Assembly: GCA_937958315.1 (NCBI GenBank)
Contig: CALFGH010000149.1
Span: forward strand, 1 to 48,127
Length of the DNA: 48,127 bases
Direction: 5' to 3'
Source of the DNA: an uncultured Collinsella sp.
GTDB lineage: Bacteria; Actinomycetota; Coriobacteriia; Coriobacteriales; Coriobacteriaceae
In this document: in pieces, positions 8,062 to 35,056 of the stretch
How positions within the stretch are numbered: the stretch's first letter is position 1
Layout: each line of letters starts with the position of its first letter
Translations under genes and position numbers: made by a program
Notes under the pieces: generated by a model
The model's input: only the letters and a program-made list of their open reading frames with translations
The model's database searches: none
Told to the model about the DNA's origin: nothing

Positions 8062-8640
8062 ATGTCCGTGGACCTGGTAGCTGCGGAGCGCTTGGGAAAT
8101 CTCAACGACCCGTCCTATGAACTCCTGCTTCGTCGGGAGATGGGTGGCATTTTTGAGGTTGACGAGCTGCTACTCGATTGGGACCAGGCTGATACGCGTT
8201 TGTTTGTGGGCGTGACGGAGCTGGGGCGCACGGTGAATGCCCGGCTGGATGCCACTGATGGCGAGCGTCTTGCCGACGGTGACGTGCTTGCTATTGACCG
8301 CACGGGCGCGGTGCCCGTAGCGGTTGTCGTACGCCTGCGCAGCGCCGAGGTCTATTTGGTCGAAGTCGACCGCATGGATCCGATTGTGCTCGCACATGCG
8401 TGCTGGGAGATCGGCAACATGCATGCGCCGCTCTTCCGGGGTGACTCGGATGATTATACCGTGCGCATGTATACGCCGGTGCAACCGGTTTTGGGTCGCA
8501 TGCTCCGGGGTATTGGGGGCGTTCGACTCTCGGTGGTCACACGCGAGCTCGATGCCAGTCGACGCTTTGCATCGAGCGCGGCGGATGTTGTTGTGAGTAT
8601 GGCTCCAGACTTTACGATCGTAAAGAAGGCGCGCGGTTAA
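8062..8640 (+). CDS. ureE: Urease accessory protein UreE-like
   Basis: L.DGDVL and AHACWEIGNMHAP (GNRH-type motif). Confidence 0.7.
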   Translation: MSVDLVAAERLGNLNDPSYELLLRREMGGIFEVDELLLDWDQADTRLFVGVTELGRTVNARLDATDGERLADGDVLAIDRTGAVPVAVVVRLRSAEVYLVEVDRMDPIVLAHACWEIGNMHAPLFRGDSDDYTVRMYTPVQPVLGRMLRGIGGVRLSVVTRELDASRRFASSAADVVVSMAPDFTIVKKARG

Positions 8641-28829: not shown

Positions 28830-28955
28830 TAATCGGTTGCCGTTTGGGGGCCGATTGGCAACGCTCGCTGATTGTAGTCTTGACCTGCGCTAGAATAGTG
28901 GCATCTGAATGTCCGGGCGCATGGAGGCGTGCGCCCGTATGCTGAGGAGGACTCT

Positions 28956-30650
28956 ATGGCAACTGTTGCCGCACCTATCGATGCTACGTCGACTGCCGCT
29001 TGGAAGGCACTCGAGGCTCATCAGGAGAAGCTTGAGGCCGATGGTATCGACCTCAAGGCCTGGTTCGCCGCCGATGCCGAGCGCGTGAACAAGCTGAGCT
29101 TTGACGCCGGTGACCTGCACTTCGACCTATCCAAGAACCTGGTGACCGACGAGACCGTCAAGCTGCTGTGCGATCTTGCCCGCGAGGTGAAACTCGAGGA
29201 GCGCCGCGACGCCATGTTCTCCGGCGAGCACATCAACACCACCGAGGACCGCGCCGTCCTGCACACCGCGCTGCGCCGTCCGGCAAGCGAGAAAGGCCAG
29301 CTCATCGTCGACGGCCAGGACGTCGTCGCCGACGTGCACGAGGTCCTCGATCGCATGTATGCCTTCGCCGAGCGCGTGCGCTCCGGTGAGTGGAAGGGCG
29401 TTACCGGCAAGAAGATCGAGCACCTGGTGTCCATCGGCATCGGCGGCTCCGATCTGGGCCCGGTCATGGCCTACGAGGCTCTGCGTCCCTACGCCGACGC
29501 CGGTATCGACTGCCGCTACATCTCCAACATCGACCCCAACGACCAGGCCGAGAAGCTCAAGGGCCTGGATCCCGAGACCACGCTCGTGATTATCGTCTCC
29601 AAGACTTTCACCACGCTCGAGACCCTCACTAACGCTCGCGAGGCCAAGACCTGGATGCTCGAGCAGCTCAAGGCTCAGGGCGCCATCGACGGCTCCGATG
29701 AGCAGAACGCCGAGGCCGTGGCCAAGCACTTCGTCGCTGTTTCCACCGCACTCGAGAAGGTCGAGGCCTTCGGCATCGACCCCGCTAACGCTTTTGGTTT
29801 CTGGAATTGGGTCGGCGGCCGCTACTCCGTCGACTCTGCCGTGGGCCTGTCGCTGATCGTCGTGCTCGGTCCCGAGCGCTTCCAGCAGTTCCTCGAGGGC
29901 TTCCACGCCATCGACGAGTACTTCTGCAACACGCCGCTCGAGAACAATGCCGTCGCGCTGATGGGCCTGCTCAACGTCTGGTACGTCAACTTCTTCGGTT
30001 CCAAGAGCCACGCCGTGCTTCCGTACTGCCAGTATCTGCACCGTTTCCCGGCCTACCTGCAGCAGCTCACCATGGAGTCCAACGGCAAGCATGTCCGCTG
30101 GGACGGCAGCGCTGTGACCTCCGATACCGGTGAGATCTTCTGGGGCGAGCCCGGCACCAACGGTCAGCACGCCTTCTACCAGCTGCTGCACCAGGGCACC
30201 GTGGTGGTCCCGGCCGACTTTATCGCTTTCGCCAATACCGCCAACCCTGCGACCGACAGCGGTCAGGACGTGCACGAGCTGTTCCTGGGCAACTTCCTGG
30301 CCCAGACCAAGGCGCTTGCCTTTGGTAAGACGGCCGATGAGGTGCGCGCCGAGGGTACGCCCGAGCAGATCGTCCCGGCCCGCTGCTTTGAGGGCAACCG
30401 TCCGACGACCTCGATCTTCGGCGACACGCTGACCCCGTTTGCGCTCGGCGAGCTCATCGCCCTGTACGAGCACATCGTATTTGTCGAGGGCACGGTCTGG
30501 GGCATCGACTCCTACGACCAGTGGGGCGTCGAGCTGGGCAAGCAGCTTGCCAAGCAGATTACCCCTGCCTTCCACGACGACGCCGCCAAGGCCGAGCAGG
30601 ACGCTTCGACTCAAGCGCTTATCGAGTTCTATCGCGCGCATCGCAAGTAG
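28956..30650 (+). CDS. pgi: Glucose-6-phosphate isomerase
   Basis: [48 protein letters not shown]. Confidence 0.98.
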
Positions 30651-30683
30651 TCGCTGCTGTTAACGCGTCGCGCCTTATAGTCA

Positions 30684-30721
30684 GGGGCCCGTATCCTATC
30701 GGATGCGGGCCCCTTTGCTTT
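30684..30721 (+). terminator. Terminator after pgi
   Basis: GGGGCCCGTATCC/GGATGCGGGCCCC followed by T-rich tract. Confidence 0.7.
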
Positions 30722-30791
30722 GCCGTGGTCCCGGGGCGCACGGCCTTTGTGGAACATCGCCGGGGCGCCGCGCGCTGCGAGAACCCTGCGC

Positions 30792-32096
30792 CTAGATCTC
30801 GGTCTCCGCATGGCCTCGCTGCGCCTCGGGCAGCTCCCCGTAGAGCGGATGGTCTTCGAGCCTAAAGCGCTCGACCTGTTCGGGAGTGCGACCGCGTACA
30901 AAGAGCCACGAGCGATCGATCGGCGTCGCCATGAGCGTGCTGGGCAGTGCGTCGGCGCGGTCGGAAAACACCCGGGCGTTCTCGGGATCCTGGAACGCCA
31001 GCACCAGATGCGTGTCGCAGTTGCCCATGATGGAGCGTGCGCGTGCCTCGCCATAGAGCGCATCGAGCTGGTTGGTCGACTGCAGCAGCAGCGTTGCCCA
31101 GATGTTGCGGCTTCGGATAATCGAGAGCACGTTGTCGATCTGGGGGATCTGCAGATTTGCGAAGTCATCGAGCATAAAGCGCACGGGCACGGGCAGGCTG
31201 CCGTCGGGCTGCCTATCGGCCTCACGAATGAGGCCCATAAACGCCTGCGAAATAAAGAGGCCGGTCAGGGGATCGAGATTGCGGTCAATATCGCTCACGG
31301 TTACAAACAGGGCGCAGGGGGTGTGTCCCATGGAAGCGAAGTCCACCTGATGGCACTGACGATAGAGCCGTGCCGCACCGTCGAATCCCAGACACATGAC
31401 CTTTTCGGCAAGGATGCCGACGATGCTCGCGTGCATGCGCTCGGCATTTTGCGTAATGGCGTAGCGCCGCCATAGCGAGAGGGCATAGCTTTGGGGGTCG
31501 GTCGTGATCAGGTCGTCAAACAATCGACCCGTGGCACCGTCCTGCAGGTGCTCGATCAGCTTGATGACCGAGCTGATCGTCTGCTCGTCGGCGGGTAGCT
31601 GTTCGGTGACGTAGGCGATAAGACACGACAGCAGGTTTGCCGCCGCATGATCCCAAAAAGGCTGGTTGTTGTCCTCGATGGGGCAGATGGCCTTTGCCAC
31701 CGAGAGGATGTCCTGCTGGTTGGGCCTGCCGTCCGCCTTGCGGCGAATGTGCCTCAGGGGGTTGTAGCCGCAGCGCTCGATGCCGGGCGCAAGGACCGGG
31801 ACGGTGTTGAGGTCGGCGAAGTTGAGACATTGCACGCGGTAACCGTGGGCTGCCAGCACGGGTCCCACTTCGCGACAGAGCGTGCCTTTGGTGTCGAGCA
31901 CGATGTAGCTTGCGTTCATTTGCAGCAGGTTGGGCTTGAGGACGTTTCGGGTCTTGCCGGCTCCCGAGGGGCCGATCACAAGTGCATTGTTGTTGAGTCC
32001 CGTTTGGCGGGTGTCGCAGGAAAGCGTTCGATCCTTGGCGAGGATGGTGGACGATGCGGACTCAGATGCGGCGAGGCGGCTGGCGAGGTTAGACAT
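30792..32096 (-). CDS. VirD4/TraG-like (type IV coupling protein family) ATPase, no N-terminal TM anchor
   Basis: N.N.LVIGPSGAGKTR..LKPNLLQ, D.KG, YNPL, FW..AA..L, FMLDDFAN, RSR, QS..QL..LYG, GNCDT; AAGGAGG RBS, start overlaps clpP stop. Confidence 0.88.
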   Translation of the reverse strand: MSNLASRLAASESASSTILAKDRTLSCDTRQTGLNNNALVIGPSGAGKTRNVLKPNLLQMNASYIVLDTKGTLCREVGPVLAAHGYRVQCLNFADLNTVPVLAPGIERCGYNPLRHIRRKADGRPNQQDILSVAKAICPIEDNNQPFWDHAAANLLSCLIAYVTEQLPADEQTISSVIKLIEHLQDGATGRLFDDLITTDPQSYALSLWRRYAITQNAERMHASIVGILAEKVMCLGFDGAARLYRQCHQVDFASMGHTPCALFVTVSDIDRNLDPLTGLFISQAFMGLIREADRQPDGSLPVPVRFMLDDFANLQIPQIDNVLSIIRSRNIWATLLLQSTNQLDALYGEARARSIMGNCDTHLVLAFQDPENARVFSDRADALPSTLMATPIDRSWLFVRGRTPEQVERFRLEDHPLYGELPEAQRGHAETEI

Positions 32097-32706
32097 GGGC
32101 GACCTCCTTGGTGGTCGAGAGGATTTCGTGGGCAAAGCCGAGCTCGACGGCGCGCTCGGCCGAAAGGTAGGTGTCTTTTGCAGTGAGGGACTGGATGCGC
32201 TTGGGCGTGAGGCCGCTGCGGTCCGAGAGGATTTGCGTGAGGGTCTTGCGGGTCTGCATGAGACGCCGGCTGGTTTCCTGCAGCGCAAGTGCCGAACCGC
32301 CTGCCCCCTGGGGGATCAGTGGGTCGTGAATCATGAGCTCTGCATGGGGCGCCATACGGCGATCGTCGCCGCCCATAAAGATCACGGCGCCCATGGACGC
32401 GGCGAATTCCAGGCAGACGGTGCGGATGGGGCACGATGCGAGGCGCATGGCGTCATAGATCGCAAGACCCGATCGCACGCTTCCGCCGGCGCTGGCGACA
32501 AATATGGTGATGGGACGGCTGGGGTCGGTGGCATCGAGCAGGCGGATCTGCTGGCATAGGTCGTGAGCCATCGGGGTTTCGATGTTTCCCATGACGGAGA
32601 GCTCGCGACGGGCGAGCATCTCATCGTAAACGCTGGTGAGCGTGATACCTCGGGCGGATTCACGCATGGTGAGGGGGCTGATGATGGGGGAATGATTGGT
32701 GTCCAT
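32089..32706 (-). CDS. clpP: ATP-dependent Clp protease proteolytic subunit (accessory paralog)
   Basis: S.GGSV..GLAIYDAM, AASMG (Ser), MIHDP (His), DTYLSAE.AVELG (Asp). Confidence 0.92.
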   Translation of the reverse strand: MDTNHSPIISPLTMRESARGITLTSVYDEMLARRELSVMGNIETPMAHDLCQQIRLLDATDPSRPITIFVASAGGSVRSGLAIYDAMRLASCPIRTVCLEFAASMGAVIFMGGDDRRMAPHAELMIHDPLIPQGAGGSALALQETSRRLMQTRKTLTQILSDRSGLTPKRIQSLTAKDTYLSAERAVELGFAHEILSTTKEVAHV

Positions 32707-32769
32707 GAGGACTCCTTTCTGTTGGTTGTGTTGTGGAATAGGATTGTTGCCCGCGGAGGGGCTGGCGGG

Positions 32770-33660
32770 CTACAGGGTTCGTCCGAGCCTGAGATCGAGC
32801 TCGGTTGTGGGGCAGGCTGCCTGTTCGTGCGGCTCGCAAGCGCCAAGGGCTCCAAAGCGATAGAGCGTTGCGGCGGGCGTGGTGTAGGCGAGCCGCAGCT
32901 GATGCTCGACAGGGGCACATCCGTCATTTTTGTAATGAGCCGCGTAGCACTGCGCGATGCTGGCGTTCATCTCGCTGCCATTGCGATGGCGCTCAAACTG
33001 GCGTCTGCAGGTCTCGATGATCTTTGCTACCGACTTGGGTGCCGTCGCGGGAACAAGGGCGAGATAGCCCTCAAATAGCTCGTTGATGCTCAGGAGGCAC
33101 AGCAGGTCGATCAGCGTCCTTATGGCTGCTCCCTCGGCAGAAAAATGCGCGGTCATGCGGTTATATCGGTTGCGGTCGACTATGGCCGCATGGGGTCTTG
33201 GAGTTTTCTGCCCTGTGGTCCCGGGCTTTTGCCGCGCCTGTGTATTGAGCTCGACGTTGCAGCGCTTGAGGCCGTCCAACGGAAGGAACAGTGCGGTGCG
33301 CAGGGTGTTCCGCTTGCTCTCGAGTTCATGACGCTCGTCGGGCTCCCATTCGAGCTTGAGTTTCGTGTCGAGCGCCGTAAGCATATGGGCTAGGCAGCCT
33401 ACGGTAAGAACGTACGAATCGTTGTCGCGTTTTGGGGCATAGGGGTCTGTCAGCTTGCGAATGTCGGGGTCGCCCATGATCTTTGTGCAGCGCTTCAGCA
33501 GTTGAGGGTGGTCGGCCAAGATCGTCGCGAGCGGTAGCGACGCGTAGTTCTTGATAGTCGCGGCGGCAAAGGCGGCGTCATATTCGTTTGCATATGCTCG
33601 CTCAATGCGGGCATCCAGAATGCTTTTCTTATCGCCGTCTTCAGCGTGGTGGTTTGTCAT
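32770..33660 (-). CDS. Hypothetical protein (296 aa), first gene of the clpP-virD4 module
   Basis: Long ORF with GGAG RBS before ATG 33660, co-oriented and 63 bp upstream of clpP; no motif recognised. Confidence 0.7.
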   Translation of the reverse strand: MTNHHAEDGDKKSILDARIERAYANEYDAAFAAATIKNYASLPLATILADHPQLLKRCTKIMGDPDIRKLTDPYAPKRDNDSYVLTVGCLAHMLTALDTKLKLEWEPDERHELESKRNTLRTALFLPLDGLKRCNVELNTQARQKPGTTGQKTPRPHAAIVDRNRYNRMTAHFSAEGAAIRTLIDLLCLLSINELFEGYLALVPATAPKSVAKIIETCRRQFERHRNGSEMNASIAQCYAAHYKNDGCAPVEHQLRLAYTTPAATLYRFGALGACEPHEQAACPTTELDLRLGRTL

Positions 33661-34150
33661 AGCTTCTCCAATCGGTTGATGTTCGTGCTGTTTGTTGATG
33701 TGTTGGTTGTCGTGAGTGATGTGCTTGCCGTGGGTGATGTGCTGACGTTGGGGTGCTATGCGGTTTTCAATGAGCCCGTGAGGCAGTTGCTGCAGGGGCG
33801 GGGTGGAACGGCCCATGCAAGGCGGAAGGCATCGTGCTCAAAATCGAGACAGCAATGCCCTGGGTGCCTCACATGTGGCAGTTACCTCATTAAGTTGTCA
33901 TTGCGTTTGGGGTTGTACTTTGCCGATCTTCCTTCTCTTACACGCTAAAACTCAAACTTCATATGCTCGATCTACTTAAAACCGCAACGGCGGTCTTTTA
34001 TCAACTTATATGTCGGAACGCGTCTTTGCAAGTACTTTTTTTGCCTTTGTTTCAAATGGGGTGGTTTTGCAACCGTCATACGCGCGCTGTGCGAACGTGC
34101 CCCGGCTCGGATAAGATAGTGCGCGATAAAAACGATGCAAGGAGGCACAT

Positions 34151-34993
34151 ATGGCAATTAAAGCCATCGCAATGGATATCGACGGTACGCTCACCAACGA
34201 CCAGAAAGTGATTAGCCCGCGTACGCGCGAGAAGCTGCTCGCGGCGCAGGAGTCGGGCATTAAGCTCATTTTGGCTTCGGGTCGTCCCGCATGGGGGCTG
34301 CACGCCTTGGCGCAGGAGCTCGACCTCCAAAACCATGACGGTCTGCTAGTCGCTTTCAATGGCGCGCATGTGGTCGACGCTCAGACCGATGAGATCCTTT
34401 TTGACCAGGCCATGCCGGCTGACGAGCTGCACCGTCTGATTGATCATCTGCGCAATTTCGACGTGATCCCCATGATTTCGCTTGGTCGCGATCTGCACGT
34501 CGAGGACTCGTACCATTGCATGATCACGCTGCCTGACGGCTCGCAGAAGAATATTGTCAAGTATGAGCGCGACGCGTGCGATCTTAAGATTCGCGAGGTG
34601 GAGAGCCTGCATGAGGTCGCTGATGCTTATCCCGTGGACAAGTTGCTGACGGCAGGCGACCCGGCATACCTGCAGGCGCATTACGAGGAGATGTATGCGC
34701 CCTTTAAGCAGACGCTTTCGGGTATGTTTACGGCCGACTGGTACTTTGAGTACACGGCGCCCGGTATCGACAAGGCCCGTGCGCTCGAGGGTGCCCTGCC
34801 CAAGCTCGGCATCGATGCCAGCGAGGTCGTATCGTTTGGCGACGGCCAGAACGACAAGTCCATGATTGAGTGGGCCGGCACCGGTGTTGCCATGGGCAAC
34901 GCCGTCGATGAGGTTAAGGCTGTAGCCCAGATGGTGACCGCCAATAACAACGAAGACGGTATTGCGGTGGCATTGGATAAGCTACTGGGCTAG
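34151..34993 (+). CDS. Cof-type HAD-IIB hydrolase
   Basis: DIDGTL, ASGRP, NGA, FGDGQND, AMGNA. Confidence 0.93.
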   Translation: MAIKAIAMDIDGTLTNDQKVISPRTREKLLAAQESGIKLILASGRPAWGLHALAQELDLQNHDGLLVAFNGAHVVDAQTDEILFDQAMPADELHRLIDHLRNFDVIPMISLGRDLHVEDSYHCMITLPDGSQKNIVKYERDACDLKIREVESLHEVADAYPVDKLLTAGDPAYLQAHYEEMYAPFKQTLSGMFTADWYFEYTAPGIDKARALEGALPKLGIDASEVVSFGDGQNDKSMIEWAGTGVAMGNAVDEVKAVAQMVTANNNEDGIAVALDKLLG

Positions 34994-35056
34994 AATCGCC
35001 GATAATGCATGGTTCGGGCGTCCGCTTGCGGGCGCCCTTTTGTTAGGGAGGGTGCC

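Follow-up and report, generated by a model that had tools for sequence, protein, structure and literature searches.

A ClpP paralogue linked to an anchorless VirD4-like ATPase in a recently spread island of Collinsella: a candidate protease/ATPase system

Why does a Collinsella chromosome carry an extra ClpP gene joined to the gene for a VirD4-like ATPase that has no membrane anchor? The question is raised by contig CALFGH010000149.1 of an uncultured Collinsella sp. (assembly GCA_937958315.1, 2.14 Mb, 94% complete). The contig was analyzed as a whole, and its 48,127 bases are the window to which the coordinates below refer. Three co-oriented open reading frames (ORFs) on the minus strand, encoding P0003, ClpP (P0002) and the ATPase (P0001), lie between pgi and a Cof/HAD hydrolase gene. 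The original prediction, made from the letters of the DNA, had described such a trio antisense between these neighbors, and ORFs and Pfam matches reproduced it, together with the predicted 8-nucleotide (nt) overlap of clpP and the ATPase gene and the Shine-Dalgarno (SD) sequence inside clpP. Our tentative answer is that the three genes constitute one operon and a conjugation-independent module, in which a soluble ATPase ring may work with a dedicated ClpP, possibly as a defense or conflict system. The features concerned are as follows.

30792..32096, minus strand: VirD4/TraG-type ring ATPase of 434 amino acids (aa) without transmembrane (TM) helices, P0001 (NF045973, PF02534, PF10412)
32089..32706, minus strand: extra ClpP paralogue of 205 aa, P0002 (PF00574, 1.5e-44; triad intact)
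32770..33660, minus strand: fast-evolving, predicted all-alpha protein of 296 aa, P0003 (AlphaFold2 model; ratio of nonsynonymous to synonymous substitution rates, dN/dS, 0.45)
32089..32096, minus strand: 8-nt overlap of the clpP stop and the ATPase start (ATGTCTAA; ATPase ATG at 32096)

Linkage of clpP to a TM-less ATPase gene, which had been chosen beforehand as a test that could refute the prediction, was retained in 18 of 18 diverged loci. When 401 Coriobacteriia genomes were searched for the ATPase, all 13 diverged loci were retrieved, and in every one of them (ATPase identity 41-60%) clpP was upstream on the same strand, directly so apart from one locus with an intercalated gene for a 295-aa protein. 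The pair was also present in all three metagenome loci of 70% G+C, which were reached via the third gene, in the single locus from a viral collection, and in the second of the two diverged units that stand in tandem in locus L017, which is 78% identical. The 8-nt overlap recurs in that second unit. Among the near-identical Collinsella loci clpP was full length in 79 of 80, the remaining one being interrupted by the end of a contig. The ATPase occurs in 85 of 144 other Collinsella genomes (sampled species), mostly at 97-99% identity, and diverged copies (41-61% identity) were found in Collinsella and in two other families, where the module occupies unrelated chromosomal sites. A sample of 400 genomes of the phylum gave no match outside Collinsella at E ≤ 1e-40. 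TM-less relatives of the ATPase at 42-48% identity are present in Oscillospiraceae, and the ATPase cluster holds 19,061 member sequences.

The ATPase resembles the type IV coupling proteins (VirD4/TrwB/TraG/Cag-beta) in having a nucleotide-binding domain (NBD) with Walker A and B motifs and an all-alpha domain. It matches the NCBIfam model NF045973, 'VirD4-like conjugal transfer protein, CD1115 family', at a borderline 256.2 bits (cut-off 250; 254.6 bits for the locus in a six-frame search), and the Pfam models PF02534 (9.7e-33), PF12696 and PF10412 (TrwB_AAD_bind, 1.8e-16). Both predicted motifs were recovered, Walker A (GPSGAGKT) at residues 42-49 and Walker B (FMLDD) at 307-311. The all-alpha domain of CD1115 type is present, inserted in the NBD (PF10412); a profile of the ATPase family finds Helicobacter pylori Cag-beta (8DOL) at 3.7e-9, with profile positions 165-374 aligned to Cag-beta 258-467. 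In agreement with the prediction, TM helices are absent and the protein begins shortly before Walker A, by 41 residues rather than the approximately 35 that had been claimed. In an alignment, P0001 and ten other ClpP-linked members start just before the NBD, whereas three canonical CD1115 proteins have about 128 extra N-terminal residues with hydrophobic segments, which form the anchor, and a C-terminal insert of about 30 residues; P0001 and its ten relatives lack both. Canonical CD1115 proteins on Firmicute plasmids are 589-620 aa long and about 30% identical to P0001. On the annotated Firmicute plasmids their genes sit between those for PcfB and Maff2, VirB6, PrgI or VirB4; genes of the TM-less type never adjoin these, and always adjoin clpP instead. 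A tree separated 19 TM-less ATPases from 6 canonical CD1115 proteins with support of 100/100. Three Subdoligranulum 'plasmid' matches proved to be canonical coupling proteins of 608-621 aa without ClpP. The ATPase may descend from type IV coupling proteins, with loss of the membrane anchor.

The second refuting condition, that the homologs are fragments of conjugative elements, also failed: the module is not a piece of such an element. None of the 79 proteins encoded next to the 13 diverged loci belonged to a type IV secretion system (T4SS) or relaxase family. The genome to which the window belongs has no second PF02534 match, no PF12846 (VirB4-type) match over the cut-off and no PF03432 relaxase match. 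The claim that relaxase, VirB, integrase, tig and clpX genes are missing nearby thus held for the locus and, as regards relaxase, VirB4 and a second coupling protein, for the entire 94%-complete assembly; the housekeeping tig-clpP-clpX operon is on another contig (C141).

The operon partner of P0002 is the VirD4-like ATPase gene and not a gene for an AAA+ unfoldase (clpX, clpA or clpC). In its resemblance to the protease of ClpXP and ClpCP, P0002 has a full-length fold: it aligns end to end with solved ClpPs, its N-terminal axial region is present, and its gene is translationally coupled to that of a ring ATPase. The predicted Ser-His-Asp triad is intact as S104 (AASMG), H127 (MIHDP) and D178 (KDTY); in 14 aligned sequences S104 and H127 are invariant and D178 is nearly so. 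P0002 is nevertheless a diverged paralogue, with a 2-residue insert after the catalytic His, and it falls below every equivalog cut-off for ClpP in NCBIfam (121.6 vs 308.6 bits for TIGR00493, and likewise for all 8 other ClpP models). The two systems differ also in their motors, which are AAA+ proteins in ClpXP and ClpCP; P0001 is of the FtsK/HerA/VirD4 kind.

Both enzymes are under purifying selection. Between the two Collinsella unit types dN/dS was 0.12 for the ATPase, 0.11 for ClpP and 0.45 for P0003. All three genes are transcribed: in one stranded RNA run available as raw reads, with the library orientation fixed from the pgi strand, sense depth was 18-75 over the three genes vs 438-584 over pgi (three other runs consisted of contigs only). 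Read ends pile up near 33976-33982 and depth falls beyond 33966, which indicates a leader of about 320 nt.

These data bear on a very improbable explanation, that the genes are the decaying remnant of a conjugative element or a prophage and serve no function at present; in the prophage case ClpP would be a prohead protease and the ATPase would belong to DNA packaging. It would account for an ATPase score just above the CD1115 cut-off, for the match of P0002 to phage head-maturation protease families in PHROGs (phrog_94, 1.8e-36), and for some alleles in which clpP is frameshifted or the ATPase gene contains a stop. Against it, dN/dS is about 0.1 for both enzymes, the genes are transcribed, the frames are intact in nearly all of the 85 Collinsella genomes, and clpP and the ATPase gene are still linked where ATPase identity is as low as 41%. 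No PHROG matches the ATPase, no phage families were found among the neighbors of the module, and a search of 2.9 million viral contigs gave a single locus, which has no phage genes; P0002 itself scores 95.2 bits with the phage head maturation protease model NF045542, under its cut-off of 120. The selection and linkage data largely refute the remnant explanation. An example of an apparent pseudogene is found in Collinsella genome G388 (C46:36212-37498), where an ATPase gene with a 91% identical product has an internal TAG stop.

The third protein, P0003, evolves much faster than its partners. It had no match in Pfam, NCBIfam, PHROGs or PADLOC, and its family numbered 44 representatives at E ≤ 0.001 among 1.84 billion proteins; in the ESM Atlas the matches were confined to unnamed Actinomycetota clusters. 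Identity is 42-45% between unit types, for an ATPase identity of about 80%, 16-45% where ATPase identity is 60-81%, and 14-26% for remote members. Near-invariant positions are L15 and R18 by the N-terminus and a C-terminal motif, P-x-A-x-L-x-x-x-G-A-L ... L-x-x-x-L. The possibility that the part P-x-A-x-L-[WYF]-x-x-G-A-L is a loop like the IGF loop was considered and rejected, since it is inside a predicted helix and the Phe is not conserved. An AlphaFold2 prediction from 12 sequences was unusable (pLDDT 51), and one from a 24-sequence alignment gave an all-helical fold at a pLDDT of 76.7. With this fold, Foldseek found no match in the PDB at E ≤ 0.001 (best 0.6), and the best Z of a wide VIA-align search was 5.9, under the noise level stated for helical models. 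In other genera, unrelated small proteins of at least two sequence groups are encoded downstream of the ATPase in the place of P0003.

A three-chain model of ATPase, ClpP and P0003 was computed with P0003 as the scored partner and with three controls. The interface score ipSAE of P0003 was 0.68, 0.73 and 0.70, and 0.00 for all three controls; the mark used for this score is reached by 116 of 157 solved complexes and by 2 of 215 mismatched pairs. The runs had at least 46% of contacts in common, with a partner pLDDT of at least 70. Confident modeled contacts connect residues 13-38, 156-160 and 181-185 of P0003 with residues 163-199 of the ATPase, which belong to a helical insertion aligned with the equivalent region of Cag-beta. 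When the ATPase was swapped out the score of P0003 was abolished, and the model thus supports docking of P0003 on the ATPase rather than on ClpP. On the evidence of this model, the N-terminal helix of P0003, with its conserved L15 and R18, may be what docks on the all-alpha domain, which is where coupling proteins receive substrates or adaptors such as CagZ. The likeness to Cag-beta and CagZ is that of a small, predicted all-helical protein encoded beside a coupling-type ATPase and modeled on its all-alpha domain. The differences are that P0003 matches no solved chain in fold or sequence and that its gene stands in a ClpP operon instead of among secretion genes. The earlier suggestion that the first gene encodes an adaptor, sensor or substrate gains support from this placement.

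Taken together, these observations can be accommodated in a mechanism that remains conditional at each step. The anchorless coupling-type ATPase would form a soluble ring acting with the dedicated ClpP, and the ring would either thread targets selected by P0003 into ClpP or open and activate ClpP when a target is sensed. The targets would most likely be proteins or nucleoprotein complexes of invading DNA, such as phage, plasmid or incoming relaxase-DNA. The rapidly evolving specificity subunit would be P0003 and, in other genera, the unrelated small proteins encoded in its place. Physical coupling of ATPase and ClpP is thus presumed in this scheme.

A rather unlikely alternative is that the ATPase is a DNA translocase or sensor of the FtsK/VirD4 type with nucleic-acid effectors, and that ClpP is not stacked on it. 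ClpP would then remove or process P0003 or the ATPase, or would be an abortive-infection effector released on triggering. Fusions to a UvrD-type helicase domain or to DHH/DHHA1 phosphoesterase domains occur in some of the Oscillospiraceae relatives, as such a role would suggest, and genes for a superfamily 1 (SF1) helicase are located directly downstream of the module in L104 and L107. The DHH-fused form was not found in the 401-genome class sample or in plasmids. In addition, a PD-(D/E)xK-like protein follows the module in three loci, the ATPases of six other loci end in a ClpX-degron-like -AA, and no contact with ClpP appeared in the complex model, in which only P0003 was scored. The Collinsella island, on the other hand, consists of the three genes only, without a helicase or nuclease. 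The order of clpP and the ATPase gene, their close or overlapping junction and the way in which divergence of ATPase and ClpP is correlated across the diverged loci are, moreover, as expected for subunits of one machine.

Two of these features deserve description in their own right. The PD-(D/E)xK-like protein, so judged by eye from a D...FQVK motif, is 213-243 aa long, is encoded two genes downstream of the ATPase (L108:11108-11749, L112:7325-7972 and L113:7258-7989) and is strongly conserved (E 1e-109 to 1e-121), with no match in Pfam or PADLOC. The six ClpP-linked ATPases of other genera (L108, L110, L112, L113, L114 and L115) have an acidic tail followed by a terminal -AA or -A, an ending that resembles the ssrA-type ClpX degron; the Collinsella proteins do not end in this way.

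The proposed role of the ATPase-ClpP module in defense or conflict is suggested by circumstantial evidence from its neighborhood and population genetics, namely the fast evolution of P0003, the PADLOC matches of neighbors, the relatives fused to helicase or phosphoesterase domains, the patchy presence and the recent spread described below. Neighboring proteins matched PADLOC models at E ≤ 1e-10 in 6 of the 13 class loci. These comprised MkoC/MkoA-like helicases (two loci), PDC-M26A, WYL, a PDC-S20/QatA/PifA-like KAP NTPase and PDC-S27; a seventh class locus had only a weak DdmE match (2.9e-6). Defense modules with an FtsK/HerA-like or P-loop ATPase, for example MAD7-MAD8 of MADS, offer a parallel in their ATPase and effector layout, variable accessory gene, strain-variable presence and defense-like neighbors. 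The only matches of the ATPase in PADLOC-DB 2.0 were to mad8 (6.8e-8, a weak match, the mad8 model also matching unrelated P-loop proteins at about 1e-4) and to PtuA (0.014). In its published description MAD7-MAD8 is an ATPase-nuclease module and not a protease (PMC13662399).

A more daring version of the same idea, which we regard as unlikely, is that the ATPase would be the first non-AAA+ motor to activate ClpP. A P0003-type subunit would capture targets on the all-alpha domain of the soluble hexamer, from which they would be threaded into ClpP. As a coupling-protein fold naturally acts on relaxase-DNA complexes and on further proteins that are transferred, the module would then be an anti-plasmid and anti-phage immune protease that destroys incoming pilot proteins and that spreads among gut Collinsella species as the 3.4-kb island.

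The module resides in a small island, the boundaries and signals of which are listed here.

About 30716..34123, minus strand: island of about 3.4 kb bounded by the pgi terminator and the region upstream of cof, present or absent among Collinsella species
28929-30650: pgi, convergent with the ATPase gene (PF00342, 8.6e-205)
34151-34993: Cof/HAD hydrolase gene (PF08282, 5.9e-58)
30683..30714, no strand: GC-rich hairpin with a 14-bp stem between the convergent pgi and ATPase genes
33661..33982, minus strand: CA-rich repeats of AGCACATCA within a long leader and promoter region (RNA 5' ends near 33976-33982)

Empty sites were identified in four Collinsella genomes (G003, G005, G013 and G019), in which the gap between pgi and cof is about 157 nt. 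The right end of the island at 34123 is followed in many genomes by a diverged copy of the last ~39 nt of pgi with the hairpin and then by a deoC-like gene. The tandem units of L017 each have such a pgi fragment and hairpin copy at the far end. Median synonymous divergence (dS) from the window, for Collinsella loci picked by ATPase similarity (80 loci) or by whole region, was 0.022 for the ATPase, 0.040 for ClpP and 0.043 for P0003, and 0.199 for pgi and 0.347 for cof (74-87 loci per gene). The choice by ATPase similarity biases island identity upward; the class sample shows the same near-identity of the island ATPase (97-99%). The dS of the island is 5-15 times below that of its flanks, and in 64 of 66 loci the dS of the ATPase was lower than that of either flank. 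The island thus moved from one Collinsella species to another in recent times, though it carries no integrase.

This mobility might be explained if the island were a small integrative mobilizable element, the anchorless coupling protein of which passes island DNA to a helper T4SS, with ClpP and P0003 as accessories; we consider this quite improbable. The location at the 3' end of pgi is shared by the near-identical loci and by three of four 60%-type modules of other Collinsella species. This site, the tandem units with their pgi and hairpin copies and the low dS are all features that such an element might show. Furthermore, TM-less coupling proteins do exist in Gram-positive conjugation, as exemplified by TraJ of pIP501. 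No integrase, relaxase or oriT-like feature was found within the 3.4 kb, however, the genome itself is devoid of VirB4 and relaxase matches, and in other families the pair is at unrelated chromosomal sites. Mobilization, moreover, gives no reason for a strictly linked and catalytically intact ClpP.

The spacer between pgi and cof has undergone other changes. Many Collinsella genomes have a gene for a 224-aa deoC-like aldolase in the stretch from the island to cof (e.g. L020:6988-7662), a gene that is missing in this contig. Island-free loci (L094-L097) retain only a short remnant of the deoC-like 3' end, and the spacer is thus a hot spot of deletion and insertion. In one 60%-type module, an insertion sequence transposase gene (rve/rve_2/HTH_21) is inserted between pgi and the ATPase gene (L106:4928-6325).

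How well, then, does a soluble ATPase-ClpP defense machine stand? A number of observations weigh against it. In the three-chain model, in which only P0003 was scored, all of its confident contacts were with the ATPase, and the model is silent on ClpP binding. The alignment of ClpP-linked members reveals no conserved IGF/LGF loop of ClpX type in the ATPase, and no true fusion of ClpP to the ATPase was present among the relatives examined. Some strains carry a broken clpP, as the frameshifted alleles testify; either these alleles circulate or they recur as an assembly error. On the side of defense, no model of PADLOC-DB 2.0 matches ClpP or P0003, and the ATPase has the weak mad8 match to show; the defense-like neighbors are mostly candidate (PDC) families, and the flanks in this contig are plain housekeeping genes. 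Lastly, besides the sampling bias noted above, a recent spread would be expected of a selfish element no less than of a useful one.

Two leads on physical coupling were followed and rejected. The LGF at P0001 236-238 was considered as a ClpP-docking loop of the ClpX/ClpC type. It is invariant in close relatives, yet it is not kept more widely: other ClpP-linked members have LSF, LAT, LTF, FGF, LSH, FVF or LAF at this site, and canonical ones FGI or FDI. Two proteins of 637 aa, P0004 and P0006, combine PF00574 with PF02534 and might have been Rosetta-stone fusions. They are 98% identical to 30792-32706 and are not domain fusions, but the product of a frameshift in clpP that leads into the frame preceding the ATPase start; a cluster of this kind comprises 47 member sequences.

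The SD of the ATPase gene, AAGGAGG at 32103-32109, is inside clpP and seven bases upstream of the overlap. The best start of P0003 is at 33660, with the SD GGAG at 33666-33669; a longer ORF from 33816 was rejected, as it has no SD and its counterpart is not open in the second unit type. The hairpin at 30683..30714 is likely a bidirectional terminator. Just upstream of the P0003 start, in the minus-strand leader (~33701-33760), there are 4-5 copies of AGCACATCA(C/A), 18-21 nt apart. These repeats are common to both unit types (L017:4880-4980 and 8336-8420) although the units are only 78% identical, and they could be an operator or a leader-RNA element; Rfam gave no match within 30000-35000 at E ≤ 0.1, the repeats included. 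Beyond pgi, a 191-aa ORF at 28181-28756 matches only the first ~106 positions of the iron-containing alcohol dehydrogenase family (8.5e-10) and is probably a truncated gene.

A literature search, of which subscription journals and supplements were outside the reach, found no description of a module of ClpP and an anchorless coupling ATPase. ClpP, VirD4 and TraG have no occurrences in PMC12839542. The present analysis adds the structure of the island with its recent spread, evidence of transcription, estimates of selection, a modeled interface of P0003 with the ATPase, and grounds for discarding the LGF and fusion leads.

Judging from the 19,061 sequences of the ATPase cluster and from the presence of the ATPase in 85 of 144 sampled Collinsella species, the module is very common in the human gut. 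It is expressed and has swept recently between species, and its function is therefore under strong current selection. Since Collinsella aerofaciens ATCC 25986 carries the module, its function is directly testable. To our knowledge, every partner of ClpP that has been described is an AAA+ unfoldase. A ring ATPase of RecA fold and conjugative descent, strictly tied to a dedicated ClpP, would widen the known ways in which a self-compartmentalized protease is driven or gated, and the module would show a component of a secretion system turned to a cytoplasmic job.

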